64,000 bases of DNA from UHGV virus genome UHGV-1410950; one strand, 5' to 3'. Below the pieces are notes generated by a model, which had not been told where the DNA came from, made no database searches, and worked only from the letters and a program-made list of their open reading frames with translations. A program made the position numbers and the translations under genes. This document shows, piece by piece, positions 1,154-40,300 of this stretch (its first letter is position 1; each line of letters opens with the position of its first letter). The stretch is from a virus.

Positions 1154-2548
1154 TTAAGGTGTCGGGTTAGTTGGGTCAGTCGGGTCGCTGCCGTACAGCC
1201 AGTCATTACTGGTGTCCCAGTTATCCGGGTCTTCCCATGTAGCGCCGCTGATTTTCGTGGCGTAAACCTTCGCTCCGGTGAACATCCCACTGGCATTGAG
1301 GAAGAATTTATTTTCCTCTTTGTAGTGGTTAGAAAACACCATCCACTCATATGGCTTGCTCCATGTCTGGAAGCCGCGCCATGTACCTGCATCGCGCCAT
1401 GTTTTCAGCGCTTCTGGGTAGGCTTGGGCAAACTTAACGTCAGAAGCACCCAGCCCACCCATCCACGCGGCTACTACATGGGCGTCCGCCGTGTAGCTGA
1501 GCAGATGGCTGTCTTTGCCCCATACGCGGCCCAGCAGGCGCTCTTTTGGCGTCAGCATGGATTGCATAGAGGTGATCGCGGCTTTGTAGTGCATAGCCAG
1601 CTCGACCGGAGTATCAAAGCGCATATCATCGAGTCGGTAATACTCGTTGAAGGCGATGAAGGCTATGCGCATATCCCAGATACTCGTCCAGATCTCGCCT
1701 ACCAGCGGATCGTTGACGTAATAACGCATACGCGGCTCAGGCGTCATGATGTCAACGCCTGCGGCCTTGTTGCGCTGGATAATCGGGATAATCTTCTCAG
1801 TCCAGTCCAGCGGGGGAATGGTCTGGTAGCTGACAGGCTTAATCAGGAAGTACCCAATTGAGTCCTTATCATAGAAGCGGCTCGCGCTGTCAAAGCGACC
1901 GTAGTCGAGGCGGAAAATGTCATTCCACGGCTCCTCAATGGTCACATCGTACCCGGTCAGCTCCTTGATCGTGTTCTCAATGGCGATGGCGTTCACGCGG
2001 ATGCGAAACGCCTCTTTGGGAATCAGTGCCTGATAGTCTTTATCGCTCATCCCATCCGGGCGAGTGATGCCGAACAGCTTCCCCCAGTAGGCCAGCCAGC
2101 TGCCTTCTGCCTGCGTGATGATCATCTGCCTGAGGGCTTGGGTCACGGCGGCGCGGGCATCCCGGATCATCGTGGCATAGGCCCCCATAATCACATGCAG
2201 CTCGTCGGCAAAGCCCATAACCCATGACGGCGTAGCCTTCTGCACCAGTGTGCTACCCTCCAGCATGATGCGGGCGCTGAGCGCTTTGCTGTCAGTCTGG
2301 AGGTTGAAGATATCGAATCCATCCAAGGCCAGCTGTGCTGCCAGCTGCTCCACCGTCAGCGCGGTAAGGTCATACGTGTAATCGTATGTGCCACCGGGCA
2401 GCAGGTTGATAATCAGTTTTTCTTCGGCAACGTTCAGGCGCAGGTCTGAGGTTTTGCGTGAAATAGCAAACAGCCGGACTTCCTCGGCGGAGGTGTCAAA
2501 TACGGCGCGGTGCAGGTTACTCAGGAGGCGCTTTAGCGTTGTTTTCAT
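1154..2548 (-). CDS. Baseplate/tail protein (464 aa), in the Mu gp48 / P2 gpI-like position
   Basis: Long ORF directly downstream of the baseplate-J-like gene, with a 4-nt stop/start overlap. Call is positional. Confidence 0.4.
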   Translation of the reverse strand: MKTTLKRLLSNLHRAVFDTSAEEVRLFAISRKTSDLRLNVAEEKLIINLLPGGTYDYTYDLTALTVEQLAAQLALDGFDIFNLQTDSKALSARIMLEGSTLVQKATPSWVMGFADELHVIMGAYATMIRDARAAVTQALRQMIITQAEGSWLAYWGKLFGITRPDGMSDKDYQALIPKEAFRIRVNAIAIENTIKELTGYDVTIEEPWNDIFRLDYGRFDSASRFYDKDSIGYFLIKPVSYQTIPPLDWTEKIIPIIQRNKAAGVDIMTPEPRMRYYVNDPLVGEIWTSIWDMRIAFIAFNEYYRLDDMRFDTPVELAMHYKAAITSMQSMLTPKERLLGRVWGKDSHLLSYTADAHVVAAWMGGLGASDVKFAQAYPEALKTWRDAGTWRGFQTWSKPYEWMVFSNHYKEENKFFLNASGMFTGAKVYATKISGATWEDPDNWDTSNDWLYGSDPTDPTNPTP

Positions 2549-3675
2549 GGCAGCACGATCCCTAAGGTGGAGATAGTCACCTGATCATCGGAGGAGGTCA
2601 GCACCTCATTCTGTCCACAGGTGATGTTGGCGCTCATGGAAACCGTGACCTTTTCAATGCCAGCCACCTGCAATGCCGCCGATTTCACATCGTCCGGTCG
2701 CAGAATTTCCCCAGCTTGTACAGAGCCCAGCAGGCTGTAATAGGCGTTGCGGATGGATTGCTTAGTCGCTGGCGTCAGGGTGTAGCCAGACTGCATCCCG
2801 ACGAGGAAGGTCATCGGCACGACTCGCGCCGACATCGCGCCGACATCGGTACGCACCCCAGCAGCTGAGTAACCGGGAATCCTCTCTCCAGTCGTGGGAT
2901 CCTGATACCCGGTAATAATTTCCTGAGCGCGGGCCAGCAGCTCCGGGCTCGGAGAGCCAAGGTTAGACCAGATGTACAGATGGTTATAGCCCAGCGTGTA
3001 GTCATAGCCGCGTCGGGTGACGAATTCCACCATCACACCATTGGAGTCCCTGATCACCGCCGTAGTCAGCGCGTACATCAGGGATTCGTAGGTGCCACGG
3101 GAAAGGGATGCGATATACGACGCAAAGCGTACCATGCGATCCGCTTCGGTCTCCGCATCGCTGCCCCCGTTGATCTCCGCGTTGGAGATCGTGAAGTCTG
3201 CCGGGGCGAAGAAAGGCGAGGCGTTAATCTCACCTACGGCAGCATTACCCTTAAAGCCCGGTGATAATGCCTGCACAGGCACGCGGATAGTCGCCTCGGT
3301 AATTGGCCATGTCATTTGACCGCTCGACGCGTACTGGCGTCCATCCTTCGCCGTGAATACGGTGCCCTTCGGGATCGTAATCGGCTGAGTCAGCGGCTTG
3401 TTTGTGGTTACAGTGACGAGGCCAGACGCATAAGTAGCGCCCAATAGCGTGAAATTAAACGAGCGGTAAGTGGCGACCGGGATCGCCTCCAGCAGCCCGT
3501 TAAACATTTGGATGTAGAGCTCCTCGACCTCTTGGGCGGGAGCCTCAATCAGCGTTCGGGAAACAGAGCCCGGCTGGAGGTCAGTAATTTTAACGGTCGT
3601 GCCGCGCACATAGTTGAGCGCCCCGGCGACGATACTGACAAAGTTTTTGATCTGAAACATGCGCAGGCCCACCAT
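2545..3675 (-). CDS. Baseplate J-like protein (Mu gp47 / P2 gpJ family)
   Basis: 376-aa ORF. The N-terminal region (FQIKNFVSIVAGALNYVRG...LLEAIPVATYRSF) resembles the baseplate-J family, and size and position fit a Mu-like baseplate. A more likely start is the ATG at about 3660 (MFQIKNF...), which has a GGTGG-like RBS. Confidence 0.5.
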   Translation of the reverse strand: MVGLRMFQIKNFVSIVAGALNYVRGTTVKITDLQPGSVSRTLIEAPAQEVEELYIQMFNGLLEAIPVATYRSFNFTLLGATYASGLVTVTTNKPLTQPITIPKGTVFTAKDGRQYASSGQMTWPITEATIRVPVQALSPGFKGNAAVGEINASPFFAPADFTISNAEINGGSDAETEADRMVRFASYIASLSRGTYESLMYALTTAVIRDSNGVMVEFVTRRGYDYTLGYNHLYIWSNLGSPSPELLARAQEIITGYQDPTTGERIPGYSAAGVRTDVGAMSARVVPMTFLVGMQSGYTLTPATKQSIRNAYYSLLGSVQAGEILRPDDVKSAALQVAGIEKVTVSMSANITCGQNEVLTSSDDQVTISTLGIVLP

Positions 3676-3711
3676 CAGCAGAATGCCGATAGTGTGCCAT
3701 CACGACCAGCC

Positions 3712-4329
3712 TTAGACGTCCACCTTGAGGTCGATAGCTGCGCCAGCGATAGGCGTCAGATCGGCGCTGATACTCATCGCATCGCCGTTTTGGGTGGCGA
3801 CCACGCTGTTAACCGAAGCCACGCGGTAATCGGCTTTCAGCGACGCTTTGACGTAGCCAGCGCCCAGCGTGGTTTTCGTCGGGCCAGTTACCACACCATG
3901 CAGGAGATTCACCTTGCAGCCATATTCCGGGTGGCGATGAAGCTGCCCGGTCGGCGTGCGGATTCGGTGATTCAGCTGCTGAGTCAGATTATCGAGCCCT
4001 GCACACACCGCGAGATCCCCATCCACGGCTTTCAGACGACGGTTGACCATCAGGCAATCGCGTTCGAACAGCTGATCGTAATCAGTCTTGTCGGTGTATA
4101 CGCCTGCGGGTGCCGGGACGCGGATCAGGGAGCCATTCAGCAGCACGCCATCCTTCACGGCGGTAGGGTCATCCGTCAGATACGGATAGGTCAGCGAATT
4201 GAGCCAAAGCAGCTCAGCCCAGCGATTTGCGTCGTTGAGCTCGCGTCGAGCCACCGCTTGCAGGTCATCGCCGTATTGGGTCTGTACCAGCCGATAAGAC
4301 GGCATCTGGCGTTCGAATTCATTAGCCAT
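3712..4329 (-). CDS. Baseplate protein (205 aa; gp25/W-like or spike-associated position)
   Basis: ORF in a conserved baseplate gene string, overlapping the next gene. No motif recognised. Confidence 0.35.
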   Translation of the reverse strand: MANEFERQMPSYRLVQTQYGDDLQAVARRELNDANRWAELLWLNSLTYPYLTDDPTAVKDGVLLNGSLIRVPAPAGVYTDKTDYDQLFERDCLMVNRRLKAVDGDLAVCAGLDNLTQQLNHRIRTPTGQLHRHPEYGCKVNLLHGVVTGPTKTTLGAGYVKASLKADYRVASVNSVVATQNGDAMSISADLTPIAGAAIDLKVDV

Positions 4330-5506
4330 TGTAAGAGATCCCGTTATTAATCATGGTCAGGTGGCGATTGAGCTCAGCCACATCCTTAGGAGCCATTACC
4401 GGATCGTTGTTACCCAGCTCAGAAACGGAAGATGCTGCCGCGCTGGACAGCTGCACCGGGGATTTCTTGTCATCCATCAGAGCAAAGGCGTTACTGTCTA
4501 CGTAGAGGCTGCGTGCGCTACCGCCAGTCGTCGATGAGCAGTTTGACGCCCCGTACAGGCCATCGTAGTTGTCATACGTTTTACGCGGCTTGAGGGAGTT
4601 TTTAAAGATACACACCACTTCCTGAAACGAGCCGGAAACACGCATAAACGCCTGTTTAACATCATCAGGGATGCCCGCGATATTGGACAGCGTGCGGTTG
4701 AGGTTTACCCCGACGCGGGCCATATCGTGCGCGATGCCGATCAGATCATTCGCAGTACCGTTGATGGCGTTCTTCCCGGTAGCGATAACGCTGTTTACCG
4801 TGTTGAAAATGCGGTTTGCACTTTCGGTAAAGGCCCGGACGGTTGAGGCAAACGGCGCGATAGCGGCATCTTTCAGGTCAACCGCCTGTTTGATCCAGCC
4901 CTCAATATCCTTCCCGTAGCCCTCAATGGTGCTTACCACATCGCTCAGCGCTTTCAGTCCACCGAAGATAGAGCCAGAGAAGGGAAGGATCATCAGCGGG
5001 TTGTCAATGTCGGTATCGACACATTGCAGGTTCATCGAATACTGGAATAGCAGCGGACGGGAGCGGGAGCGGCGCAGCACAAAGTTGGACGGCGAGACCA
5101 CCCATGTAAAGTTGTTCAGCATATCTACGTACAGGAGTTTCACCTGACGGGGATCCTGCCCGTTGTCGATGGCCTGCTGTTTGGCCTGCGGGTACTGGTG
5201 CGCGATCAGCTGGTTGAGAGTTTCAAACGCCTGCGCACCATCCTCGCCGGAGCCCTGCGCGGTTCTCCAGCCCGTATGCCCGCTGATACTCAGTTTCGGC
5301 AGGCCCTCGCCAAACTGATCCTCCCAGCCCTGAACTCCACGCCCCAGCGTTTGCGTAACGTTGGAGCGTAGAGGTTCCTCGCGCGTAAAGTCTTCCGGGC
5401 GCAGCTTGAGCGTTACCGGGGAGTTGAGCCCGGACGGCGTTTGCAGCACGAAAGCAATTGGCTTTACGCCTGCTCGCTGGTCGGTTGGCCTGCTGCTTAG
5501 AAACAT
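4322..5506 (-). CDS. Baseplate hub-like protein (394 aa)
   Basis: Positional call: sits at the Mu gpP-like position after the spike-like gene. Confidence 0.35.
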   Translation of the reverse strand: MFLSSRPTDQRAGVKPIAFVLQTPSGLNSPVTLKLRPEDFTREEPLRSNVTQTLGRGVQGWEDQFGEGLPKLSISGHTGWRTAQGSGEDGAQAFETLNQLIAHQYPQAKQQAIDNGQDPRQVKLLYVDMLNNFTWVVSPSNFVLRRSRSRPLLFQYSMNLQCVDTDIDNPLMILPFSGSIFGGLKALSDVVSTIEGYGKDIEGWIKQAVDLKDAAIAPFASTVRAFTESANRIFNTVNSVIATGKNAINGTANDLIGIAHDMARVGVNLNRTLSNIAGIPDDVKQAFMRVSGSFQEVVCIFKNSLKPRKTYDNYDGLYGASNCSSTTGGSARSLYVDSNAFALMDDKKSPVQLSSAAASSVSELGNNDPVMAPKDVAELNRHLTMINNGISYNG

Positions 5507-6300: not shown

Positions 6301-7868
6301 CAGAAAATATCCTTTTTGAGAGAAAACAAGGCATCCAGATCCTTCCCGGCGCTGGTCAGGTCATTGCCACGGGTAGCCTGTTCTTTCAGCCATGGGCTTA
6401 CGCCGCCCCCGGTGCTGCTGACGCGCTCGGCAAATCCGGTACCGCGTGCAAATTCCAGCGACGTGCTGTACGAGTTGTACGGGATGAAATTATCCTGCAC
6501 GCTCATGATGTAGGCGCTCCATGTGATTTTTCCATCCAGCACGGTGAGGTAATCACCGCTGCGGAGCGCATCGGTTGAGTTATCCCGCGTCGGGCCACCC
6601 TTCATTGACAGTGCGCCAAACTCCAGCACCACGTTATCTTTGTTGGACTGGATCATGATGCCACGGCGATCATTAATCCAGTCTAGCATGTAGCCTCTGC
6701 GCTGCTCCTGAGGGTTCTGCTCCAGCCCGCTGGAAACGCTGGTCACATCGTCAGGGCTCATCACGGAATCCGCATACATGGCACGCACGCCATAGTATTT
6801 TTTCGCTGTGTTCGGGTATTCCATGGTCTGCTGAGTACCGCCAGCCATAATGGCCTCAACCTTGCGGTAAATATCATCGACCATCGCAAAGCGGCTGTTT
6901 GTCACCCAGTAATAGTTATAAACGCTCGAATCGTTGCGCGTCTGGCGGATATCGGAGATATAGCCATCTGGTACCGTTCCGTTTTTCGGCGGCTGCGGCA
7001 GGTTCTGAATGGCTAGCCCGGTCATCAGGTCAATGGCTGGTACCGGACGCCAGACGAGGTATACGCCATCCTCGCGGTCTTCAATAAAGAGCTCATTCCA
7101 TACGCCCACATCCAGATACTGCTTCATGAGGTCGTATACTGAGCCCTCCTGATTCATCCAGCTGTCAGACACTGAGCCTGAGGCTTGCAGATCAGGCTTG
7201 ATGACGCGCGGCACGCCGTTGTTTTTCGGCAGCAGGGTATCAAGCAGCGGGTTAATGGCCTTGTCCAGCAGCAGGTTGATGAATTCAGCCCCGGTGATGA
7301 CGTTCTTCACGTTGCCACCAAACTGCTCGAAGAAATTCCACCCGGTCAGCAGCGGTGCCGATCCGTGATAGCTTGGGATGTAGAGCAGCTGGAATGACTG
7401 GAGGATCTTGCCGTAATCCTGCCCACTCACCACCACCGTGCGCATCGGCTTGCCGTCCTTGCCCATCTGGCGACCACGGCTGATCTCGCTGACGAATCCG
7501 CGCATCTTAATCGGCAGGGGGTTCGGGCAGGGCCCAATCCCGCTCCACATGCGGATCTCTACCACGTCCATTGGCTCTACGAGCCCATAAATGGACTCCA
7601 GCCCGGCACTGTCCAGTACCGGGCCCATATTCTGCCCGGATACGTTCGGCTTGTCTGAGAAGCTCAGGGAGAAGGTACCGCAGGGTTGCCCGATGTTCTT
7701 CGTGGTGCTGATACTTGTCCCATCGCCAAAAAACGGCGTCAGGTCAATGTATGCCTCTTTGTTGGCATAGCGCTCAGAAGTAGGAAGGCCAGCATCTTTG
7801 GGCTGGCGCATGATGGACTTGTACAAGCGCACGCTAATCTTCGGCGTGGCAACGATAACCTTTGGCAT
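6300..7868 (-). CDS. Tail protein, DNA-circulation-like (Mu gpN position), 522 aa
   Basis: Large ORF immediately after the tape-measure gene, the typical position for this family in a contractile tail. No motif-level proof. Confidence 0.4.
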   Translation of the reverse strand: MPKVIVATPKISVRLYKSIMRQPKDAGLPTSERYANKEAYIDLTPFFGDGTSISTTKNIGQPCGTFSLSFSDKPNVSGQNMGPVLDSAGLESIYGLVEPMDVVEIRMWSGIGPCPNPLPIKMRGFVSEISRGRQMGKDGKPMRTVVVSGQDYGKILQSFQLLYIPSYHGSAPLLTGWNFFEQFGGNVKNVITGAEFINLLLDKAINPLLDTLLPKNNGVPRVIKPDLQASGSVSDSWMNQEGSVYDLMKQYLDVGVWNELFIEDREDGVYLVWRPVPAIDLMTGLAIQNLPQPPKNGTVPDGYISDIRQTRNDSSVYNYYWVTNSRFAMVDDIYRKVEAIMAGGTQQTMEYPNTAKKYYGVRAMYADSVMSPDDVTSVSSGLEQNPQEQRRGYMLDWINDRRGIMIQSNKDNVVLEFGALSMKGGPTRDNSTDALRSGDYLTVLDGKITWSAYIMSVQDNFIPYNSYSTSLEFARGTGFAERVSSTGGGVSPWLKEQATRGNDLTSAGKDLDALFSLKKDIF

Positions 7869-23243: not shown

Positions 23244-25055
23244 TTACAGGTCAGGCAGACCAAACGATTTGTAGAGCCCTTCCTCGTCGAGGTTCTGCAA
23301 CGTGTTATGCAGCTCATCGAATTTTTTCTTATTGTCGGCTTGCAGCTGCTCCTGCTCGGCCTGCTGCTGTGCAGCTGCGTCGGCGTCGTCAGGGTTGGCA
23401 GGATCAGCGCCCGGCTCCTCGCCCGGCTGCTGTAGCTCGGCCTGCTGCGCCATCTGCTCGGCCTGAATATCAGCGTTGACCTTAGCCATATAAGGCTGCA
23501 TCGAAACGCTGTTAAGCGGGGAGTTAGCCCAGTCTTCTTTGATTTCTTCCCAGTTGCGAGCGCGGCGTGCTTCGTTGACGGTAAGGAGCGTTTTCTCCTC
23601 GTCCCACGCCTGCTTCGGATCCTTCTCATCCAGACCTGTCCAGCGGAACACGTACTTATCTGAGAAGTCGGAAATGATGTAATCGGTGAATAAGTCCTCG
23701 AAGTGCGACAGCAGCGGTCGCAGGCCCTTATCCTTCGAGTTGATCAGCTTCTCCTCCGTGTCACTGCCGGACAGCGAACTGGTACCAGCAGTGAAGGATT
23801 CGAAGTTGATCTCGTCCGGGGCGATGCCATAAATAGCGCAGATGATCGCGGTTAAGAACGTCATCCATTTGGCAAACATGATCTCGTTAACGTCTACGCC
23901 AAAGTTTTCAAATTTCGCCGTGGATTCCGAAGTTTTGGAAACCATGACGGGCAATGTCCATGCGTTATTGATGCCCTTCACCATGCTATTCCAGTACCGC
24001 TTAAAGGAGTTGAGATCCTCGGTAGAATAGTCGCCGGAGAGATGGAGCAGACCTTTCGGGATGGCGTTCGAGTCGAAATACTTCTGGTTGTACGTCATGG
24101 CGTTCAGGAAGCCCGTGACGGTGTTTACCAGCAGCTCAGTTTCGCTCATCCCGTAACCGCCGTTCAGCACATCGGTGCGGGTGTTGCGCGGAACATAGAT
24201 CAGGTCGTTGTAGGTGTAAGCGGTGCGGATGTTACCCTGCACCACCTGTAATGCGAAAATCTCATCATCGCCCTTGTAGCCGTCCTCAGTACAGAGGCGG
24301 ATCGTGGCACCATCGACGGCATAAAGCCCGTCCATGCCCAGCGAGCGGTTTTTCTTGAATTCGGTCTCAATCGGCGCGGAGTCCATCACCAGCGAGTCGC
24401 GCACCAGCTTGCTCATGAAGCCTGAGAAGTTATCGCGCTTGAGGCGAGCACGCACGCGGGGGTTACTCTCCCAGCCGCAGTTTTGCATGAACATTTGCAG
24501 CGCGTTGATGGAGTCCTGCTCGGCTTTCGCCAGCTTCTGTGAGCCGTTCTGCTCTTTCAGACGGATCTGGAAGCCGGGGCCCACGCCCTTCTCACTGGCG
24601 CGGCAGAAGCGTTTGATCTGGCGGATGCGGGTCATCACCACCGCCGACAGGATTGGCGTCTTGTCCACCATGTAGCGCATGGCATCAAAGCCAAAGTTTG
24701 TCGGACGCTCGTACCAGTCGCCCAGAATCTGCACCTGACGGTCATCCAGCCAGACAGACTGCATACCTTCTTTCTTGCCCTCGCGGACAGCCTGAGAAGG
24801 GTAATCGACCAGCGTATTTTTCTGGAGGGACTTGTAAAATTCCTGATCAGCATATGACTGGGCAATATGCTGAATCAGCGGAGCCAGATCCGGCACGCTG
24901 GAAGGCATTGCAGCTTTCTGCGCTTGCGCCATCGCATCCTGCTGTTCGTCGGCAGGCGCGGCAGGGTTGTGCGCGGTTTGGATGGCGTTGTCAGACATAC
25001 GGTTAACCTTTGCAAAGTAGTCCGCAGAGAGTGACATCACGACATCACGACGCAA
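23244..25055 (-). CDS. Portal protein (about 600 aa)
   Basis: Large ORF at the head of the morphogenesis module. Acidic Gln/Glu-rich C-terminus. The probable true start is the ATG at about 24998 (MSDNAIQ...), which has an RBS. Confidence 0.65.
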   Translation of the reverse strand: MRRDVVMSLSADYFAKVNRMSDNAIQTAHNPAAPADEQQDAMAQAQKAAMPSSVPDLAPLIQHIAQSYADQEFYKSLQKNTLVDYPSQAVREGKKEGMQSVWLDDRQVQILGDWYERPTNFGFDAMRYMVDKTPILSAVVMTRIRQIKRFCRASEKGVGPGFQIRLKEQNGSQKLAKAEQDSINALQMFMQNCGWESNPRVRARLKRDNFSGFMSKLVRDSLVMDSAPIETEFKKNRSLGMDGLYAVDGATIRLCTEDGYKGDDEIFALQVVQGNIRTAYTYNDLIYVPRNTRTDVLNGGYGMSETELLVNTVTGFLNAMTYNQKYFDSNAIPKGLLHLSGDYSTEDLNSFKRYWNSMVKGINNAWTLPVMVSKTSESTAKFENFGVDVNEIMFAKWMTFLTAIICAIYGIAPDEINFESFTAGTSSLSGSDTEEKLINSKDKGLRPLLSHFEDLFTDYIISDFSDKYVFRWTGLDEKDPKQAWDEEKTLLTVNEARRARNWEEIKEDWANSPLNSVSMQPYMAKVNADIQAEQMAQQAELQQPGEEPGADPANPDDADAAAQQQAEQEQLQADNKKKFDELHNTLQNLDEEGLYKSFGLPDL

Positions 25056-25100: not shown

Positions 25101-25451
25101 ATCCATCCCGTAGCGCTGATTGGGATGTTTTCCGATATTGAAATTTAACTTAGAAAGTTAATGTCAGTTATGGGACGGAAAGCATCAACCAATGAGCGCT
25201 TGGCTTTGACTACTCAATACGGATTTGTCGTTATTTCGCGTATACGGTTGTCAAGTGCTCAGCCAAATCCGATAAACCGGGTAGATCGATTCAGACGGCT
25301 AAGTGGAGCCTGACGATGAAAGCGCCGGATGAGGATGGCGAATGGCAAGCTACTGGCCTGACTTAATCTCTTTCAAAGTAAAGAGTAAATCTGGGCGGCG
25401 ATAGTCCATAGAATCAATATCGCAATCGGGTGAAAATCCCGTTCAAATTCT

Positions 25452-25581
25452 ACCGATTAGTGACGATGAAAGGGGCCTTCGCGATCCCCAAGTAATTGGC
25501 AGGTTGCCTTAGGTCACAAGCCGCAGCGGAGATTGCAAGCGAAGCTGTAGGATAGAGGTTCGACTCCTCTGATCGGTGCCA
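25452..25581 (+). ncRNA. tRNA 3'-half-like element (T-arm + acceptor 3' strand + CCA), degenerate
   Basis: AGAGG-TTCGACT-CCTCT T-arm followed by GATCGGT, G and CCA. A 7-nt complementary strand ACCGATT lies about 125 nt upstream, but the intervening sequence does not form canonical D or anticodon arms. Confidence 0.3.
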
Positions 25582-25723
25582 TTTTTGCGGTTACACAAGT
25601 GTGCAGATAGCGTGACGAGGAAAGGCGTTCCGTGCGACGCTGGAGGCGATGGTAGGGTAAGCACCCTCTCCTATGACTCACGACTCAACCTCTCCGGGTA
25701 ACGACCGGAGCCGCAAAACAGAT

Positions 25724-25847
25724 TGAAGCGTAGCTCATTGGCAGAGCAGCACACGGATGCGGATCCGCGCCAGCACAAGGCTCCTTCGGGGTGTGCCGCT
25801 GGCTCCAGAAGTGTATGTAACTGGTTCGATCCCAGTCGCTTCAACCA
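25724..25847 (+). tRNA. tRNA-Trp(CCA)-like gene interrupted by a 49-nt insertion (about 25754-25802)
   Basis: Perfect 7-bp acceptor stem (TGAAGCG/CGCTTCA), U8, canonical D-arm (GCTC-ATTGGCA-GAGC), T-arm ACTGG-TTCGATC-CCAGT, discriminator A and CCA. The 3' anticodon side is canonically spaced: loop CTCCAGA (U33, anticodon CCA, close to E. coli tRNA-Trp CUCCAAA), a 4-bp stem pairing with GCACA, and a 5-nt variable loop. With 49 nt removed the gene is 75 nt long. Confidence 0.4.
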
Positions 25848-25851
25848 TTTT

Positions 25852-25927
25852 GATTCTGTAGCTACAGCGGTAGAGCGGCGCACTGTTAATGCGCGGGTCG
25901 CTGGTTCGAATCCAGCCAGAATCGCCA
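25852..25927 (+). tRNA. tRNA-Asn (anticodon GUU), phage-encoded
   Basis: 76 nt with a 7-bp acceptor stem (GATTCTG/CAGAATC), anticodon stem GCGCA/TGCGC with loop CTGTTAA, T-arm GCTGG-TTCGAAT-CCAGC, discriminator G and encoded CCA. Its sequence differs from the E. coli asn tRNAs. It follows the Trp-like gene after a 4-nt spacer. Confidence 0.85.
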
Positions 25928-26092
25928 GAGTAATCATGGGTTGGTTACAAGCCTGTCAGAAGGCAATCCCGCCCCGGCTTCTCCTCAGGTCGCCGGGGCA
26001 CCTTCCCAGAATTAAGGGCAGTCCCTTACTTCTGCGTCGGTAAGAGCGGAGAATCAGGAAATTTCGACCGTAGTACCAAAACATTGCTTCCT

Positions 26093-26121
26093 TGCCGCCC
26101 CCGTGGGCGGCTTTTTTTTAG
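26093..26121 (+). terminator. Intrinsic terminator closing the tRNA unit (approximate coordinates)
   Basis: GCCGCCC-CCGT-GGGCGGC followed by T8. Confidence 0.6.
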
Positions 26122-26136
26122 CCTGAGGAGTAACCC

Positions 26137-26664
26137 ATGAATATCTTTCGCCGCATCCTGAATAAAATCTTTGGCATCCCACCAGTGCCACCAGAGCCGA
26201 AGATCGAGCCGCCAAAGTTCGGCGGTGATTTCCCGCGCCCGGTCTCCGTCACCATGAAGGCTACTCAGACCGTCAAGCAGGATCCGATGGCTGCGGCGGT
26301 CGCCCGTGCAAAAAGGGACGCGGAGAAAACTGCCGTAAAAGGCAACGTCAGCAGCGCGAGCAGCAGCTCCACCACACGCCCGGCATATGATCCACTCATG
26401 GATCCACTTAACCCGTTAAGCCCGCTATATGTTGGCGTAACAGTTGAGGAGCCGCGCCACCGCGTACAGCATCAGGAGGCGACGACGATCAGCGATACCA
26501 CGCACCGACACGTTGCCAGCCATTCTGAGCCAGTACGCAGCCACAGCTCACACAGCAGCAGCCATTCGAGCCATGACTATGGCAGCAGCCACTCAAGCCA
26601 CAGCAGCCACGACAGCGGCAGCTATGACCACGGCAGCAGCCACCATAGCGGCAGCGACTGGTAA
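26137..26664 (+). CDS. Hypothetical His/Ser-rich protein (175 aa)
   Basis: GAGGAG RBS 7 nt before the ATG. Proline-rich N-terminal half and a C-terminal SHSSHSSHSSHD low-complexity tail. Convergent with the terminase gene, with stop codons abutting. Confidence 0.5.
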   Translation: MNIFRRILNKIFGIPPVPPEPKIEPPKFGGDFPRPVSVTMKATQTVKQDPMAAAVARAKRDAEKTAVKGNVSSASSSSTTRPAYDPLMDPLNPLSPLYVGVTVEEPRHRVQHQEATTISDTTHRHVASHSEPVRSHSSHSSSHSSHDYGSSHSSHSSHDSGSYDHGSSHHSGSDW

Positions 26665-29280
26665 TTAGTCGTCACCTTTCGAAATGAAGCCGGAGCAGCC
26701 AATATCCTCCGGCTTCACCTGCATCATGATCTCATGGCAGGATCTGGTCTCCGGGTCGTAGTTCACACAGCGCCCGCAAACATCCCCGCGATACTTCACG
26801 CTGTTCACCTCCTCCATGTAGCTCACCAGCGTCTGATCGACGCCGATATCCAGCGGACTCAGGCGCTCGATCTTCACCTGCGGTGCATCCGGCAGAATAA
26901 ACGTACTGGTGCCATGGGCGCGGCTCCATGCGACATCGCATAGCAGGTTTGCGTAGGAGAAGTGGGGATCGATGCCGATTTTCTTCACGCTGCGCTTGTA
27001 CTGGTTCGTTTCCTCGTCCTTCTCAGCCACCAGCGCCGTTTTGGTGAAGTGCGTGAACATTACCGGGGCCACGGCTTCCACGCGCGTGACGCCCTTCTCA
27101 CGAATCTCCTGCACCAGCCCCTGAGGGTCTGGGATGAGGCAGATTGGCTCGTCGGCAGTGAAGCGGGCCATGGAGACCTGCATACACTTATACTGGTCAA
27201 TGCGGACGGTGTAGCGATCCTGTTCGTTCTCGTCGGTGCGCACATCGGACTTGTCCAGCTTCATGCTGTCATTCCACTGGATCATGCCATCCGCTACAGT
27301 ACCGAAGCTATTACAGATGAATACCCGGCCTTTGTGACGGTTGGCGAAGCGTTTGGCGTCGTTGTAGTTCGGGTTGATTTCCACCACGCAGCAAGCCACG
27401 CCGTACTGATTCATCAGCTCGCTACAACGGGCAAACGGATCCTCGCTGTAAATCATTTCGATGTGGACAATCGCTTGGTGCCCGGAGGGCAGTCGCTCCT
27501 TGATAACCACCACGTTAAACTGGCCCATCTGGTCAATACCCATGTAGCAGTTATCTGCGCGGGACTTCCACTGCACGCCGAAACGCAGACCATGCTTAAC
27601 GCAATTTGCCAGGTGTTCCAGCGTTACCGGAACCAGCGACGGATCGAGGAACGGCTTGCCCAGTTTACGGTTATAGAAGTTTTTCATATCCGTAGCGTTG
27701 TTGAAGGCGGAAATAATCTCGCCGGGGCTGATTGTCGGTGACAGGAACTGCGGAAAGTGCGCCGACCGGATGCACATTTCCCCTTCCTCATTCTCCGGCG
27801 CATCCGGGATCCATTCCCCGCGCTGCGTGTCCTCAATCCAGCCTCCGCAGCTGTAGCAGACATATCGGTGGCGTCTGGTGTCCGGGTCGTACTTAATGCA
27901 CTGCGGGAAATAGTCATCCAGCGGTTTCTTTTCGAGGCAGTGCGGGCACTCGGTATGGAAACGGTACTGGGATCCCAGCTTGTACCAGTGGTGGATATCG
28001 GAGTCGGGCCAGTTGGCGGTGGAGCCCATCAGGCTGTAACGGATCGGGGATGCAGACAGACGCTCACGCGTTTTCTCCATCTGCTCCAGTGACATTTCCT
28101 GCACCTCATCGAAGCTCAGGACATCCATCGGGATGGATTCGGTAGTCGCGCGGCCCGATGTCCAGCTGAATACAAACATGGCCTCACCGATGCGACGGGT
28201 ACGCACGTTACCCTCGCCTTTCTTGCGACCGCCGCCTTTCTCATCGTCCTGCACCATGAGCGCATGTACCTCAGGTACGGTGCGCACAATCGGCATGAAG
28301 CGCTCGGAGGACTTGATCCCCGCCAGCGCGGCATCCGGCAAGAACATGCCGATAGTCATCGGTTGGAAGCGCAGGCCAAGGTAAATAACAGCGAGCATTT
28401 CCATGACGGTAAAGCCCACCTGCGCACACTTCATCAGCACCAGCGTTTTACGGTATGCCTCCTCGACGGTGCTGGGGATCTGGTCATAAATCCACGCCAT
28501 CGCCGGGCGGTTATCCAGCTTGAACGGGCGACCATCCACTTTGAGGCCCGTTTCGCCCAGCCGGATGCACCACTCCAGAAAGGTCTCGTTTGGCTTGAGG
28601 ATTTTCTGGGAAGCGGTCAGTACAAAGGTCGTATCGAGGAATTCAGCATCATAGCGCTGGCGCTTCTCATCCCCGGTCGTGCTGTCCATTTTCTCCAGGA
28701 ATGCCGCGTCGAGGTTGTGGCGGTTGGTCTCGGTCGGCACGCGGCGTCGGAACCAGTCAGGATCCAGCTCGGCTTCCATCCACAGGCGATAAAAGTCGTG
28801 ATTCTTCCCGTAGGCACCGGACAGGAACCATGCACTGCCGTGGTATTCGCGCAGGCACTCAGCCAGCGTGTCACCCCAGATCTGCATGAAGTTGTAAATC
28901 TCGCGCACGTCATCAACGATCATCAGGCCATACTGCCCGTTGACCTCTTTCATGCTATCAGCCGCATAAAGATCAATGTACTGGCCCGACAGCAACGTGA
29001 TTCGCCTGCTGGTTGAGCTCTTGATGAGCGGATCGATGGCCTGCACGATACGCGTGCGCACCTCCATGAGGTCTTTATACGTGGCGCTCATCCACATCGC
29101 CGGGGCAGGGTTATTCATGATGCCCTGTTTACCAGCCACCAGAGCCTCTATGCCAAGCGTTGTCTTTCCGGCCTTCTCGCCCATGGCAATAACGTTAAAA
29201 CGCGCTGCACGGTCGATACAGGTTTGCAGCGCCTCGTTCAGAATGGGTAATTTGATTTTGATGGTTTTTTGACGAGCCAT
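26665..29280 (-). CDS. Terminase large subunit (lambda GpA-like) with about 200-aa C-terminal extension
   Basis: 871 aa. N-terminal Walker-A-like GEKAGKT. Central zinc-finger region (HTECPHCLEKK...YVCYSCGGW) resembles gpA's CPHCGEEQ...LCEHNAC. A further Cys cluster lies at the C-terminus (CGRCVNYDPETRSCHE). Confidence 0.75.
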   Translation of the reverse strand: MARQKTIKIKLPILNEALQTCIDRAARFNVIAMGEKAGKTTLGIEALVAGKQGIMNNPAPAMWMSATYKDLMEVRTRIVQAIDPLIKSSTSRRITLLSGQYIDLYAADSMKEVNGQYGLMIVDDVREIYNFMQIWGDTLAECLREYHGSAWFLSGAYGKNHDFYRLWMEAELDPDWFRRRVPTETNRHNLDAAFLEKMDSTTGDEKRQRYDAEFLDTTFVLTASQKILKPNETFLEWCIRLGETGLKVDGRPFKLDNRPAMAWIYDQIPSTVEEAYRKTLVLMKCAQVGFTVMEMLAVIYLGLRFQPMTIGMFLPDAALAGIKSSERFMPIVRTVPEVHALMVQDDEKGGGRKKGEGNVRTRRIGEAMFVFSWTSGRATTESIPMDVLSFDEVQEMSLEQMEKTRERLSASPIRYSLMGSTANWPDSDIHHWYKLGSQYRFHTECPHCLEKKPLDDYFPQCIKYDPDTRRHRYVCYSCGGWIEDTQRGEWIPDAPENEEGEMCIRSAHFPQFLSPTISPGEIISAFNNATDMKNFYNRKLGKPFLDPSLVPVTLEHLANCVKHGLRFGVQWKSRADNCYMGIDQMGQFNVVVIKERLPSGHQAIVHIEMIYSEDPFARCSELMNQYGVACCVVEINPNYNDAKRFANRHKGRVFICNSFGTVADGMIQWNDSMKLDKSDVRTDENEQDRYTVRIDQYKCMQVSMARFTADEPICLIPDPQGLVQEIREKGVTRVEAVAPVMFTHFTKTALVAEKDEETNQYKRSVKKIGIDPHFSYANLLCDVAWSRAHGTSTFILPDAPQVKIERLSPLDIGVDQTLVSYMEEVNSVKYRGDVCGRCVNYDPETRSCHEIMMQVKPEDIGCSGFISKGDD

Positions 29281-34362: not shown

Positions 34363-37300
34363 TTATACGCTCGGCAGGATGATACATTCCACAACGGTCA
34401 TGCCGCTGCCGCCAAAGCCATCGGCGTCCTTAGTCCCCGATTCGTTCACCTTAGTGATGAGGAGGCGGGTATTAGGTGGCAGGATAATTTCTTTTTCCCC
34501 GGTATGGTGCGAGATAGATCCACCACTCGGAAGCGAGCCAGCGCCCGCATAGATACCTTTTACGCCGGGGCCTGCTGTCATTTTGAGGTGAATATTACCA
34601 CTCCACACGTCTGGACTGATAGACGTGGACATAATTGCAGGCTCCATGATGACCTTGCCTACCGACGCTTTCAGCTTGGAGAGATCACCGCTGCCCAGAC
34701 TGAATTTGCGCCCGAACGTGGTACCCGGCGAAATTTCATGGCCCATACCAGACAGCGCCTGCGCTGCTGCTTTCGCTTCTGCGCTTGGGTTGCCCTTCCA
34801 CAGTCCGCTGTTCATCTGCTTATAACTGCTACCAGTATACGCCTGCACGGCCTGTTTTTGTGTCATCGGCAGCTTTTCCCACACTTCCTGTGCTGCTTTG
34901 GCATAAGTGTTTGTGGTCAGCGTGCCAGCCTTGAACGTGGTTTTAGTAATGCCAAGGTCTTCCGGCTCAACAATCCCCGGATGGCCCAGTACCAGCAGGT
35001 TCCCGATCTTGTCTGCATCGTTACCGCTCCAGTTTTCCGGCTTGTATTCTTCGTGCATCGAATACAGCGGGTGATCGCCGCCGATACGGAACTGCTCGGC
35101 TTCATGCCCGGCAAGCTGGCTCTTAATCTCGTTAATCGCCTGCATCGCGTAGCCTTTGATATGCTGCGATGGGTGATCGAGCACTGGCACCTGTCCGGTA
35201 ACAGCTCCGGTGTCTTTGTCAAAGGTTGGCGCGGTCAGGCCGCGAATGGCTTCCGGGTCTCCGGTCAGCGCCGCAGAATAAATGGCCTGCGCCGCGTCGT
35301 GGTTCCCTTTGTTCAGGAACTCTTTGGAGGACGGGCCGGATTTGCCAACGCCAGACCAGTTGAGGAAGTCAGGCGGGGTACTGATTTTCTCCGGCTTGAA
35401 TTTCTGCATTTTGATGATCTTCTCGGCTTCCGGGTACTTCTCAGCCAGATACTCTTTGCGCTTGATGAGCGTTTCCACCAGCTCCTTTTTCGCCTTATCA
35501 TCGCCCGGCCCATACTGGTTGACCATGTGCGCAATTTTGGCGTCGGAGATAGCCAGTACCTTGGAGACAGACGCGGCGATATCGGCCTCAGTCATGCCAC
35601 CGAAGACGGCTGCGCTGTTCGCGTTCATCTTCGGATCCATCAGTGACTCCAGCTCCTTAACGACAGGGCCAAATTCTTTCTTCGCACCCTGCGCACGGAA
35701 CATCAGCGAGCCGCCCGCATCGACGCGGTGAATGGTGCCGTCATCTTTCAGCTGCACGTTGTCTTTCGCCAGCCCCACGACATCCCAGTTACCCAGCCAC
35801 GCATCAACGGCGAAGCCTTCCAGCATCCCCTTGGCCTTCGCCAGCGCTGCATGGGTTTTGGCCTTCTTGATGTTCTCCCACTTCGAGGCAATAGCCATTT
35901 TCCCGTCCTTGGTGACGATCATGGCGTCCTGCGCGGACAGCCCAGCGGCGCTATACAGTTTCGCTGCCAGCACCTCAGCCTTGGCGTGCTCCTCGTTATC
36001 CGGGAACTTCACATACCATTCCTGCCCATCGGCGTCCTTCATTTTCATGCCTTCATTCGAACCGCCTTGGTTGCCCCCGGTCACTGTCCACTCATCGACG
36101 CTGATCGGCTCTTTCTTCTTCCACTGGTACTTTTTGACCTCCATCGGGCCATCAGCGGCAAGGCCATTCTCTGCCGGGTTGCTGGTCGCGGCGGTAGCCT
36201 TCATCAGCTGCGCGACGCCATTCATAGCATAGGTGCCATTCACCTCAGGGTTATAACCTGACTTAACCTTTATCCCATTAGCCATCAGCATCATCGACGC
36301 ATATTGCGCCAGCGCCTTTTTACCCGGCGCGGTCGGGCCATACTCCGTTGAGACCTTAATTTTCATCCCAAACTCGCCATAAATCAGCATCGAACCATCG
36401 GCTTTCTGCATGATGACGCCTTTGGTGCCGCCGCCTTTGGTCAGCTTGGCTTTGAGGTTATCTACATATTTCATGTAGTGATCCTGCTGCCAAGCGCTCA
36501 GGCCAAGCGCAGCGAAGTCAGGCGCTGGGATCTCGTCAGGATTGGCCCTAACCCAGCGCCCGTTTTTCAGGATCAGCATCCCGTTGGCACCCGGCTTCAT
36601 GTCGCCTTCTTTTGGGCCATCGTCGGCCTTCTTCGCATCTTCTTCGGCTACGGTATTCTTGATAGCCGTCAGGATCCCGTCGATAGCCACAGTGGCAAAA
36701 TCGTTGATGGTCAGCACGCTTTTAATGGTGCTGACTGCATCAACCTTGTCCGGGTTGGCGTCGTAGTATTCCTTGCACGCCACCGATGCTTTGACGACCT
36801 TTTGCAGCCCGCTTTTGGTCTCCGCGATGCTCTTGATGTCGTCCAGCAGTTTCAGGTCAATCATTCCCAGATCCGGCGCGGCAGTTTCCGGTGCTGGCGC
36901 AGGCTCCTCAGCTCCGGTGATCTGATCCTGTACAAAGGTCATGGTGCTGATTGCGTAATCAGTCATGCTCATTTTGACCAGATCGGTTCCCTGATTCGCC
37001 ATCAGCGCATACGCGGATTCTTTGACGCTGTTCAGCACAGCCTCTTTCATTTCCTTCGAGTCGGTGTACTTCGCCAGCATCGCCATCGCTGCCAGACCAT
37101 CCAGTGCATCGGCATCCGCCATGCTATCGCCTTTGTAGCTGGCTTTCGGGATCCCCTGCGGGACGCCGTGCATGTTGATGCTGTCTTTCAGTGTGGACTG
37201 TAGGACAGGGATATGTGACACGTTATCGCCTGCGGCCTTCACGATGTCCTGATAGGTGGCAGGGTTGTCGCCTTTCTTCGCCACGTACTCCTGCACAGCC

Positions 37301-40300
37301 ATCAGCGTTTCGAGGTTGTCTTTGGCGTTGTTGAAGACCAGCCCAAGGTCATACATGTTTTTCGGCTTTTCCGGCGCAGCGGTCAGCTTGCTGATAACCT
37401 CAGCCATGTACTCCTTGTACTTATTACCGTTGATCGTGGTGCCCGGCGTCGCGTTCTGCTCATATTTCATGGCCTCGATGAGCAGCTTTTTGCTGTTCTC
37501 ATCCTTCGCCAGTGTTGCGGCGATGGCGTAGCCCTGAAAATCAGTTGCCTCGGTCGAGTAGAAACCAACATCCGGCTTAATTGGCAGATTGAACGGCTTC
37601 CCGTGCTTCTTAAAGTAATCCTGCCCGATTTCAGACGCGGCGTAGACGTGCCCGCTATTCATTTTCAGGATGTTGTCGATAACGGTCGTGTATGCGCCCT
37701 TATCGCCATTGTTGTCCTTGATGAATTCCAGACCGATAGCACTCGCATCATCGCCGTTAGCGCCAGCCAACGCCTGTTTGAGCGCCACAATCTCGCTGCC
37801 CGCGCTGCCATTTGCTGAGGTCTCAGGCATGTCCTGCTGTAAGATCCAGTGCCCGTTATGGAAGACCAGCGTACCGCCTTTACCCTGCTTGGTATCACCC
37901 TCCTGCGGGCCATCCTCTACCAGCCACTTATTGACCTCCTGCTGGTACAGTTTAACCTGCACAGCAGCTGGCTCGGAAAGGTGAAGCTCGCTCAGCTCAT
38001 TAAAGTGCTTGGCGATCACATCAGGATCCGATTCTTTGCCTTTGTGAATTTCTTCGGCAATGACGTTATAGAGGGTCTGCACTTTCGTGCCATAGGTTTT
38101 CACCGTATCGCTGGTTGGTGATACCAGAGGTTTTTCTGGCTCAGTGCCGTAAGTCTCGCTCCACCATTTCCCGTAGGCTTTCTTACCTGCGATAAAGAAT
38201 TCATTTGCCAGCTCGTTAAAGCCATTGTCCTTCATGGCCTCAGCCATCGCCACCAGATGCGGCGCATCGTGACCGTTAGCCGTCATCCAGTCGCCAGCCA
38301 TCGCATCGGCTTGCTTTTCGTCCTTGGCATCTGTCAGCATGTCAAACGCACTTTCCCACAGAGCGTAATCGTTCAGGATCGCTTTCTTCTCCTGCTTACG
38401 CTCATGCTTAGTGGCAGTCTGCTCGGATTTCGCCGCAGCCTGAGACTTCTCGGCCCATGAATCGTACAGCTTCCCGACGCTGGACTCGGAGAAGGCCAGA
38501 TCGCTACCGTAATAGGTAGACGCCTGCTCAATGAATGCCTCGCCTTTTGTCTTCGCCCACTCGTTGAACTCAGCCACATCGGCAAAATCCGGCAGCTGCG
38601 GCTCAGGGGTTGGCGCACGCTCCTGCTTGATCTGCGGTGGCGTCGGCAGGGATTTCACGGAGATATCGCCCAGCTCTTTCTTGGCGGCGGTCACGGCTTC
38701 GATGATCCACGCGGACAGATCAACCTTCTGGAAGGCATCAATCAGGTTCTGGTCATCACGGATCACTGTCACCATGTCGTTGATGTTGTCCACAGCCAGC
38801 GCCCAGTTACCCGCGTTGAGGTCATTCTGGATGTCCTCACAGATGCCGTCGATAAACGCATCACCAGTCTGCGGAGGATTGGAGAAAGTCTTCACTCCCT
38901 CAGGCTTAGGCGCAGCAGCAAGGCCCAGAGACTCCGCCAGATTGACCGCAGGCTCTTTGCCAGCCATTACCTGCTGGTAAACCTCATTCTGCGTGTTGGA
39001 GAAGCCGGAGATATGGCCCCAGTCGCCCTTCTCGTTAACCCACATACCAGAGCCCGGATTCTTCGGATCCGCGACGATGACTGCGCTGGTATTGGTCGGG
39101 TAAACGCCTGCGTCTGGAGTCGTGGACAGCACGCCATTCCACATGTTCTTGATGACGTTTTGCTGCTTCTTGGTCAGGTGATTCGGCTTGCCCAGCTCCA
39201 CCAGCTCGGTCGGGTACTCGCTATGGTGATAGTCGGAAATGTAGCCCAGATTGTCCGGGGTTTTGGTGTTGCCACCAAAGCCGATCAGTTTCAGGTACTG
39301 GCCCGCTTGGAACGGTTTCGCCAGCGGCTCCCCCTTCTTGCTCATAGGCCATGCGGTCGCGTGCCCCATCAGCACTTTCAGGTACGGGTTGCCGTCCTTG
39401 TCATAGGTCTGGATGATCGAGCCAGCAGGCAGGTTAGGCATGTCAGAGATAGACAGCTTCTGGCCCTTTTTGAACTCACCAGCGACAGGCTGATCCTTGA
39501 GCGGCTCGCCAGTCTCCTGATTGTGCCAGCGACCGTCTTTGAAGACCTGCATCCCGTTTTTGCCCATGCGGGTTTCACCTTCCTGCGGGCCTTCCTCAGC
39601 CCGGACGGCTTTCTGCTGCTCAACCTCGGCGCTGGCCTTCTGATCCTTTTCTGCCTGGCTAAACTGGCCCAGCATTGGATGCACGGCGTCTTTGCCGATG
39701 ACCACTTTGATGTCAGGGTAGCCCAGCGCTGCCAGCGCGTTATTCGCAGCCTTGGCGACTTTGAGCCCGTAGGTGTTTTTGCCGTAGGTCATCGCCAGAA
39801 TGCCGTTGATGTTGCCTACTTCGCCAGCGGCCTTGATAGCGGCGATCTGCGCGTTGTAGCTCTTGGCATTCTTAATGTTCTCCGCGACGGCGAACTGGCT
39901 CCAGTCGATAGCTTCCATGGCCTTCTTCGACACGGATGCTTTCGGGGCTGGCTTGCCTTCGGCGGTGTCCGGCTGCGCCGGGGAGGTAGCGATGATTTCA
40001 ACCGCGCTCAATGGGCTCGGCTCCTCGGACTGCACCAGCGGCTTATTCGGATTCTCACCCGTCAGCAGCGCCAGCTTTTGCCCGTAGAGGTTCAGCAGCT
40101 TTTTGCTGTTCGGGGTGATGCCCTTCCAGCTTTTCGCCTTGCTCTTGATAGCTTCCAGCTCCGCCAGACTGGTGGCGTCGATGACCTTCTGAGCCTGCGC
40201 CTCATACGCGGTGCGCACGCCAGTGGAGTTTTTGCCGGATTCAAATTTAGGCATGACGATTTCGCCTGGCTTCGGTGCTTCGGCAGCAGGTGTTGAGGCT

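Follow-up and report, generated by a model that had tools for sequence, protein, structure and literature searches.

What becomes of a transfer RNA (tRNA) gene when its body is complete and its anticodon loop is gone: is it a split tRNA awaiting splicing, a decaying relic, or an RNA of another kind built on a tRNA frame? The question is raised by a candidate tRNA-shaped RNA gene (hereafter CAND) at positions 25724-25847, plus strand, in a stretch of 64,000 nucleotides (nt) of the virus genome UHGV-1410950, here called the window. The initial annotation read the gene as a tRNA-Trp(CCA) interrupted in its anticodon arm and offered a small intron, a pseudogene, or a tRNA mimic or decoy as explanations. 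Of these, the intron-split tRNA-Trp has turned out to be unsupported, and the tRNA mimic fits the context best because CAND shares a cassette with two tRNA-shaped, non-decoding RNAs. The reading favoured here, to which an even chance is given, is that CAND is a non-decoding, tRNA-scaffolded stable RNA with a two-hairpin payload and not a split tRNA-Trp. The observations behind it are the anatomy of the gene, its tandem packing, its presence/absence polymorphism between phages, its local conservation, and the failed tRNA-Trp and intron tests. The window derives from a tailed phage with a genome of ~95 kb whose host is Enterobacter or E. coli; over the region, identity is 99.8% to Enterobacter phage phiT5282EW and 97.7% to Escherichia phage ECML-606-1.

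The body of CAND is that of an ordinary tRNA. The hallmarks listed in the initial annotation are all present in the sequence at exact coordinates: a 7-bp acceptor stem with 7/7 pairs, a D arm with G18G19, a T arm with a TTCRA loop, a discriminator base and an encoded CCA. Additionally, T8 and A9 are present, A26 is in place and is followed by GCACA (25749-53), and the variable region reads ATGTA. A 5-bp anticodon stem with a 7-nt loop presenting an anticodon was also looked for in the gene and is lacking. A covariance model built from CAND (R1) scores ordinary tRNAs, such as the tRNA-Thr of phage T4, at 42-44 bits with an E value of ~1e-8; thus, the resemblance of the body to a tRNA lies far beyond chance. 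ARAGORN run with its intron option, a check that had been suggested for this gene, calls exactly the expected bounds but does not return tRNA-Trp. In default mode ARAGORN misses CAND and reports only the tRNA-Asn downstream, and the Rfam tRNA model misses it too, also when a slice of 411 nt is searched at E<=10. Furthermore, Rfam yields no family for CAND, or for its two neighbours TL1 and MID, at the gathering threshold and no family match at E<=10. A protein-coding reading was rejected, the open reading frames (ORFs) that overlap CAND having no match among the PHROG protein families.

The departure from a tRNA lies in the anticodon arm, where 49 extra nt are read directly from the sequence, just as first described. 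In the minimum free energy (MFE) and centroid folds, which coincide, GCAC (25749-52) pairs with GUGU (25811-14) to form a closing stem around a predicted three-way junction, and 58 nt separate the two strands of this stem where a 7-nt anticodon loop is expected. The insert, placed at 31/32, runs in the order hairpin, CGC, CAGCACAA, second hairpin. Both hairpins proposed earlier within it, CGGAT-GCGG-ATCCG and a TTCG-capped one, appear in the predicted fold, the upper stem of the latter being capped by C(UUCG)G at 25784-89. One detail of the earlier description needs correction: TGTGC, said to end the insert, lies at 25792-96, 6 nt short of the insert end. The insert holds an internal 10-nt repeat (CAGCACACGG / CAGCACAAGG, 24 nt apart), and no target-site duplication or terminal repeats flanking the 49 nt were seen besides this internal 10-mer. 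The stretch ACACGGAUG resembles a CsrA site, a likeness that is kept out of the argument. The features of the gene and its surroundings are collected in the table.

Table. Positions of CAND, its parts, its neighbours and related elements (window coordinates unless a locus identifier is given)
Feature	Position	Strand	Basis or remark
CAND, 124-nt tRNA-shaped RNA gene, CCA encoded	25724..25847	+	sequence; same bounds from ARAGORN -i
Acceptor stem TGAAGCG / CGCTTCA, 7/7 paired	25724..25730 / 25837..25843	+	sequence
D arm GCTC-ATTGGCA-GAGC (A14, G18G19)	25733..25747	+	4/4 pairs; stem strands 25733-36 / 25744-47
Remodelled anticodon arm	25749..25814	+	MFE = centroid fold
49-nt insert	25754..25802	+	sequence
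Payload hairpin a, CGGAU-GCGG-AUCCG	25754..25767	+	predicted fold
Payload hairpin b, GCCAGC/GCUGGC stem, ACAA internal loop, upper stem	25769..25803	+	predicted fold
CTCCAGA, anticodon loop of the initial annotation	25803..25809	+	single-stranded junction-joining strand in predicted fold
AGTGT	25810..25814	+	sequence
T arm ACTGG-TTCGATC-CCAGT, 5/5 pairs, canonical T loop	25820..25836	+	sequence
Discriminator A; CCA	25844; 25845-47	+	sequence
RNA cassette, ~463 nt: leader hairpins, TL1, MID, CAND	25385..25847	+	presence/absence between phages
TL1, 130 nt	25452..25581	+	acceptor stem, T arm, CCA
MID, tRNA-like RNA	25583..25718	+	closing stem TTTTGCGG/CCGCAAAA, conserved core
tRNA-Asn(GUU), bona fide	25852..25927	+	ARAGORN; Rfam tRNA model 61.5 bits
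POST, structured RNA 3' of tRNA-Asn	25928..26093	+	z = -3.4; kept in L003 and L004
Intrinsic terminator closing the RNA cluster	26094..26119	+	predicted
Portal gene	23244-25055	minus	one border of the 1.1-kb gap
Small ORF	26137-26664	plus	other border of the 1.1-kb gap
Large terminase gene	26665-29280	minus	beyond the small ORF
MID family	25583-25718 (window); L041 2479-2625; L042 2480-2627; L043 ~2464-2612; L026 ~7163-7306; L034 ~2777-2893
ACAGCAA class of long tRNAs	L047-L166 (e.g. L083 6304-6877, L095, L123, L125); L285 2498-2619

Removal of the 49 nt was expected to give a 75-nt tRNA closely resembling the tRNA-Trp of enterobacteria. The excised 75-mer, searched against 5,426 complete E. 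coli genomes (E<=10), has no tRNA-Trp match; its only three matches there are 25-nt T-arm stretches of tRNA-Asn genes. Its top phage matches, at 75-80% identity, are tRNA-Met, tRNA-Asn and one unannotated site. The anticodon is set by the choice of the excised segment, three being obtainable (CCA, CAG and UCG): ARAGORN reads the proposed excision product as Leu(CAG), and for the unexcised gene it proposes a 29-nt intron, a long variable region and the identity Arg(UCG). Tryptophanyl-tRNA synthetase of E. coli requires G73, whereas CAND carries A73. Moreover, G37 follows the CCA anticodon, and an A31-A39 mismatch appears once the insert is excised. The tRNA-Trp identity is rejected on account of A73, G37, this mismatch, the ambiguous anticodon and the lack of relatedness to tRNA-Trp.

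Splicing was considered for other identities as well. Every single-excision product of CAND was enumerated, and an anticodon arm of canonical form results from none; the closest approach is the excision proposed at first (GCACA / CTCCAGA / AGTGT), with 4/5 pairs (three Watson-Crick and one G-U) and the A31-A39 mismatch. Group I introns are ~200 nt or more in length and have a P1-P9 catalytic core; the insert has just 49 nt, and no group I intron was matched in CAND by Rfam at the gathering threshold or at E<=10. A bulge-helix-bulge consists of two 3-nt bulges with a 4-bp helix between them at the exon-intron junctions, and it needs a splicing endonuclease and an RNA ligase. Neither the MFE nor the centroid fold shows one at 25753/54 or 25802/03. 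RNA ligase, RtcB, polynucleotide kinase and splicing endonuclease gave no Pfam match in ~40 ORFs spanning the phiT5282EW-type genome, a scan that leaves small ORFs and host enzymes outside. An intron-split tRNA-Trp is not supported, as neither similarity to tRNA-Trp nor a canonical excision, a known intron signature or, in the ORFs scanned, splicing enzymes were found. CAND shares extra anticodon-arm sequence with the intron-containing tRNAs of bacteria (group I) and of archaea and eukaryotes (bulge-helix-bulge), but it differs from them in that neither a catalytic core nor a bulge-helix-bulge is detected and excision restores no canonical arm.

A functional tRNA with a small intron of a new type, formed by the 49 nt or by another segment and removed by a route that is neither group I nor bulge-helix-bulge, is a distinctly improbable reading. 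It keeps some weight because many phage tRNAs carry 40-56-nt inserts whose excision restores a perfect tRNA. Such genes were sought in IMG/VR with a pattern of a standard D arm and a standard T arm spaced 30-60 nt too far apart, which matched at least 120 stretches. Among the matches listed, 91 of 123 have an in-register acceptor stem of 6-7 bp and make up 83 distinct sequences; at least 37 of these 83 become perfectly canonical after one excision, and the other 46 are not restorable, resembling CAND in that respect. Within the same listed matches, ~20 of the 37 restorable tRNAs carry an insert of 41-56 nt that interrupts the anticodon stem within its 5' strand, following nt 28 or 29; its elements are an A-rich run, a hairpin that covaries, the invariant motif ACAGCAA and a U-rich run. 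This ACAGCAA class covers at least 11 different anticodons and can be represented several times on one contig. A member from a cultured virus, the Erwinia jumbo phage pEa_SNUABM_50, bears the annotation tRNA-Lys(ttt) and is 122 nt long. The Rfam tRNA model calls many of the long tRNAs at full length by means of a local end in the anticodon loop. For the class insert, a novel small intron and a fifth arm are both conceivable. In the literature searched, neither the class nor small inserts of a non-group-I type in phage tRNAs were found described, and a large survey of viral structured RNAs names 'tRNA or tRNA-like' candidates in general terms only (PMC10690425). As restorable inserts are common, the prior is raised that small inserts in phage tRNAs can be functional and possibly spliced.

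For CAND, a small intron would be in keeping with the intact tRNA body and encoded CCA, with the T33 and the purine at 37 that the proposed excision leaves in the loop, and with the restorable IMG/VR set, including its ~20 ACAGCAA-type members and the pEa_SNUABM_50 gene as an example from a cultured phage. CAND and the ACAGCAA class both combine a perfect tRNA body with 40-56 extra nt in the anticodon arm. However, the class insert follows nt 28 or 29 and its removal gives a flawless tRNA, whereas CAND, with its insert at 31/32, has a different topology, lacks the ACAGCAA signature and gives no fully canonical product. The ambiguous anticodon, A73, the absence of tRNA-Trp likeness, the missing Rfam intron family and predicted bulge-helix-bulge, and the absence of a detected RNA ligase or endonuclease in the ORFs scanned also speak against splicing, as does the fact that no tRNA can be recovered from the neighbours TL1 and MID. 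It is similarly doubtful that the 49 nt represent a kind of intron new to bacteria and their viruses, which would be removed in Enterobacterales and be akin in principle to the 41-56-nt inserts found in dozens of phage tRNA genes.

Other recurring families of tRNA-shaped genes, 100-130 nt in length, were noticed in the IMG/VR set. They comprise four loci with an insert at 33/34 (L071, L101, L166 and L067), four with an insert at 37/38 and a Tyr GTA anticodon (L052, L091, L146 and L153), as well as L048, L074, L115, L160 and L165 and L059 with its relatives. In some of these families the insert lies in the anticodon loop and includes a T-arm-like hairpin (GG-TTCAACT-CC). The families that begin AGGTGTG... 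and ACCCAAG..., both from gut samples, are not restorable to canonical tRNAs.

The surroundings of CAND provide the second line of evidence. The gene lies within a 1.1-kb non-coding gap and is the third of three head-to-tail tRNA-shaped RNAs, with tRNA-Asn starting 4 nt downstream; TL1, MID, CAND and tRNA-Asn are all on the same strand and are separated by spacers of 1-4 nt. The tRNA-Asn is un-annotated in the GenBank record of ECML-606-1 (L002 6515-6590), where its sequence is identical to the window copy. Compared between phages at the sequence level, TL1, MID and CAND form one exchangeable cassette, which is present in the window phage, phiT5282EW and ECML-606-1. Over ~700 nt the RNA cluster of the window is 99.6-100% identical to that of ECML-606-1, whereas the flanking 250-nt bins are 79% identical on one side and 82-84% on the other. 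Comparison with related phages had been proposed as a way to judge the insert; it is kept at ~100% in phiT5282EW and ECML-606-1 but is gone, together with the entire cassette, from L004. This metagenomic IMG/VR phage, whose portal protein is 100% identical, lacks window positions 25385-25847 entirely and has in their place a 96-nt near-perfect hairpin (L004 3577-3676, minus strand; z = -6.4), while it retains an identical tRNA-Asn and trailer. In L003, with 80% portal identity, the corresponding gap contains the leader hairpin and two further hairpins, both long, together with a mini tRNA-like RNA of 69 nt and a trailer in which compensatory changes are seen. The mini tRNA-like RNA occupies the position of tRNA-Asn (L003 3409-3481, minus strand) and has an acceptor stem GGUAGCG/CGUUACC, a T arm, an A and CCA; it has no D arm and no ARAGORN call. 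With the cassette absent from L004 and other RNAs in the gap of L003, the site is therefore a variable slot for structured RNAs.

The same comparison bears on whether CAND might act in cis, as a part of the precursor that aids processing or folding or serves as an RNase entry site and thereby sets the yield of the downstream tRNA-Asn. The short distance to tRNA-Asn on the same strand, together with the conserved structured leader and trailer that flank the locus, would suit such a role. However, L004 keeps an identical tRNA-Asn without the cassette, and the encoded CCA, the discriminator and the perfect acceptor stem mark CAND as a released RNA with matured ends and not as a spacer. A cis-acting role is considered very unlikely.

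The two RNAs upstream of CAND are tRNA-shaped in their own ways. TL1 has a 7-bp acceptor stem (ACCGATT/GATCGGT), a T arm (AGAGG-TTCGACT-CCTCT), a discriminator G and CCA; a D arm is absent and a three-way junction occupies its place. A distant counterpart in Salmonella phage Vi01 (L041 ~3093-3213) has CUGAC/GUCAG for GUGAC/GUCAC, a compensatory change, and the motif GUGACGA(U/G)GAAAGG is common to TL1 and MID. The closing stem of MID is also given as UUUUGCGG/CCGCAAAA, a hairpin stands at the T-arm position, and the core reads ...AUAG..GACGAGGNAAGGCGU..ACGC..GAUGG..GACUC..CUCA. Counterparts of MID, 78-80% identical by blastn, occur in Vi01-like Ackermannviridae and in Pectobacterium phage Amona, and remoter ones in two IMG/VR relatives of the phage, L026 and L034. 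Every one of these counterparts is un-annotated and adjoins tRNA genes, the Ackermannviridae that harbour them including Vi01 and KpS110. In those phages their T arm is a genuine one, as with GUCGG-UUCGAAU-CCGAC in Vi01, and the alignment shows compensatory pairs. Judged from this alignment, MID is an un-annotated, conserved family of tRNA-like RNAs without an Rfam match. Both TL1 and MID have an acceptor stem and a T arm and yet cannot be restored to tRNAs. Since their distant relatives adjoin tRNA genes in unrelated phages, tRNA-shaped RNAs that do not decode are recurrent at phage tRNA loci. In Vi01 (L041 ~2030-4420), ~2.4 kb of un-annotated non-coding DNA upstream of tRNA-Met is dense in tRNA-like and other structured RNAs, among them, at ~2226-2312, an element that resembles a cloverleaf and whose anticodon arm is remodelled.

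Structured RNA is also found at both ends of the cluster. The trailer POST is strongly structured, 0/200 shuffled sequences reaching an equally stable fold. Its sequence is conserved in L004 and, with some compensatory pairs, in L003, and it is possibly another non-coding RNA. In the leader hairpin (25397-25425), GCGAUA...UAUCGC of the window is replaced by GCGUCG...CGGCGC in ECML-606-1, all three changed pairs being retained amid fast-diverging surroundings. A complementarity of 11 nt between the loop of this hairpin (25410-20) and the junction of CAND and tRNA-Asn was dismissed as chance since it is not conserved in ECML-606-1. Elsewhere in the window, a 146-aa protein (41357-41797, minus strand) has a weak match to a phage ProQ C-terminal-like domain, and from this match it is a possible RNA-binding partner for the structured RNAs. 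A 2,251-aa protein (34363-41118, minus strand) has a C-terminal ADP-ribosyltransferase domain.

Homologues of CAND were sought by several routes. Beyond the two near-identical phages, blastn against phage GenBank records, E. coli genomes and plasmids found none. Likewise, no CAND homologue was returned by a D-arm/T-arm pattern on IMG/VR, by two structure-aware patterns on Joint Genome Institute (JGI) metagenomes, by a payload pattern on GTDB genomes, or by local blastn and nhmmer against ~166 fetched loci. The CAND covariance model, run over 64 loci, aligned generic tRNA bodies only and never the payload. A gut-phage family that starts with AGGTGTG... and has the motifs GGATGCG and AGCACAA(A)GG in common with CAND was considered as a homologue and rejected; a bridging pattern returned solely this family, CAND and chance matches, and the architectures differ. 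No description of the CAND RNA was found in the literature.

Several of these results weigh against a non-decoding, scaffolded RNA. The foremost is the absence of homologues beyond the two near-identical phages, owing to which the payload fold has no covariation support; this is the main weakness of the functional claims. The fold is not significantly more stable than that of shuffled sequence (z = -1.0 for the whole of CAND and z = -0.67 for the arm and insert), and therefore thermodynamics alone supports nothing. Moreover, the identity of ~100% among the three phages may reflect recent exchange and not selection. The first-proposed excision leaves a near-canonical arm (T33, a purine at 37 and 4/5 pairs), and restorable insert-bearing tRNAs are common elsewhere, including in an Enterobacterales phage, so that splicing or a recent insertion keeps some likelihood.

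These points bear in part on a further reading, in which CAND is a degenerating tRNA gene whose anticodon arm was disrupted by an insertion or duplication of 49 nt, leaving a passenger that is co-transcribed with its neighbours but has no function. An arm that is nearly canonical after excision but for the A31-A39 mismatch and G37, an internal 10-nt repeat suggestive of local duplication, a folding energy that is not significant, the lack of homologues, and a cassette that is dispensable in L004 would all be expected of such a relic. On the other hand, all stem pairs of the acceptor, D and T arms and the conserved tertiary nucleotides are intact, CAND belongs to an island where identity is ~100% while the flanks on either side diverge by 16-21%, one of its hairpins is capped by cUUCGg, and both neighbours are conserved tRNA-like RNAs that are not tRNAs. 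Decay is hence weighed as unlikely, though of some substance.

Under the favoured reading of a non-decoding scaffolded RNA, CAND would be a tRNA-derived gene that has lost decoding and kept the acceptor stem, D arm, T arm and CCA as an intact body. The 7-nt anticodon loop would have been exchanged for a three-way junction of ~58 nt made of two hairpins, one of them cUUCGg-capped, and a 7-nt joining strand. For transcription, processing, stability and function we infer the following course. A single plus-strand precursor would comprise TL1, MID, CAND, tRNA-Asn and the downstream structured RNA and would end at the predicted terminator. The tRNA body would allow release by host ribonuclease P (RNase P) and the enzymes that trim 3' ends, and it would confer tRNA-like stability. 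Through such processing and stability, it is proposed, an RNA of ~124 nt would accumulate and present the hairpin module, as a natural 'tRNA scaffold'. The most plausible role of the payload would be to sequester or misdirect a host tRNA-binding factor, for example a tRNA-targeting defence nuclease or a modification enzyme, and thus plausibly to serve as a decoy for such a factor.

Small stable tRNA-like RNAs within the tRNA clusters of phages have been known for 50 years, as species 1 and species 2 of phage T4. These T4 RNAs (rnaC and rnaD) are small and stable, 119-139 nt long, and, like CAND, stand in tandem with tRNA genes of the same strand across spacers of a few nt; T4 packs tRNA-Arg, rnaD and rnaC head to tail, much as in the window cluster. 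Additionally, rnaC resembles CAND at its end, which is formed by an acceptor-like stem and a T arm of canonical form (CCGGG-TTCGAAT-CCCGG). However, rnaC lacks a D arm, a cloverleaf and an encoded CCA, whereas CAND keeps the whole cloverleaf and has only its anticodon loop changed. Homology between CAND and the T4 RNAs is limited to a score of 19.3 bits (R1) on the T arm of rnaC, with no blastn match to rnaC or rnaD. The function of the T4 species 1 and 2 RNAs is still unknown (PMC3014915). In the engineered 'tRNA scaffold', a foreign RNA that replaces the anticodon stem-loop yields a correctly processed, nuclease-resistant and stable RNA in E. coli (PMC3753655). The architecture of CAND is the same, the scaffold being man-made and CAND natural, with processing that would follow by analogy.

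Transfer-messenger RNA (tmRNA) and bacterial Y RNA (YrlA) are comparable to CAND in that an acceptor and T-arm mimic is joined to a module foreign to tRNA. A tmRNA has a tRNA-Ala-like domain with G3:U70 and a tag reading frame, and the ends of YrlA lie in the Ro-binding stem and not in an acceptor stem. CAND differs from tmRNA in having A3-U70 at position 3:70 and no tag reading frame. In the cluster ARAGORN makes no tmRNA call, CAND matches neither the tmRNA nor the YrlA family of Rfam, and the only Rfam tmRNA match is an 8.6-bit fragment of the T arm of TL1.

The locus matters in several respects. CAND is the cleanest natural example of a 'tRNA scaffold' found here, only the anticodon loop having been swapped for a structured module. 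The 40-56-nt inserts that many phage tRNA genes carry in the anticodon stem, and that a single excision can remove to restore the tRNA, may matter more than CAND itself. Near-identical phages of Enterobacter and E. coli that differ solely in the 463-nt cassette of three RNAs constitute a natural experiment, and since such a pair exists, a comparison of host range and of sensitivity to defences is directly feasible. Phage tRNAs replace or evade cleaved host tRNAs, and their genes are increasingly linked to the evasion of tRNA-targeting defences (PMC10264068, PMC13096335). CAND, TL1 and MID may be a mobile cassette of natural tRNA-scaffolded decoys against such host defences, a slightly less radical proposal than a new intron. 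Were the decoy role true, an RNA-based counter-defence would be added to the picture of phage tRNAs set against tRNA-targeting defences.

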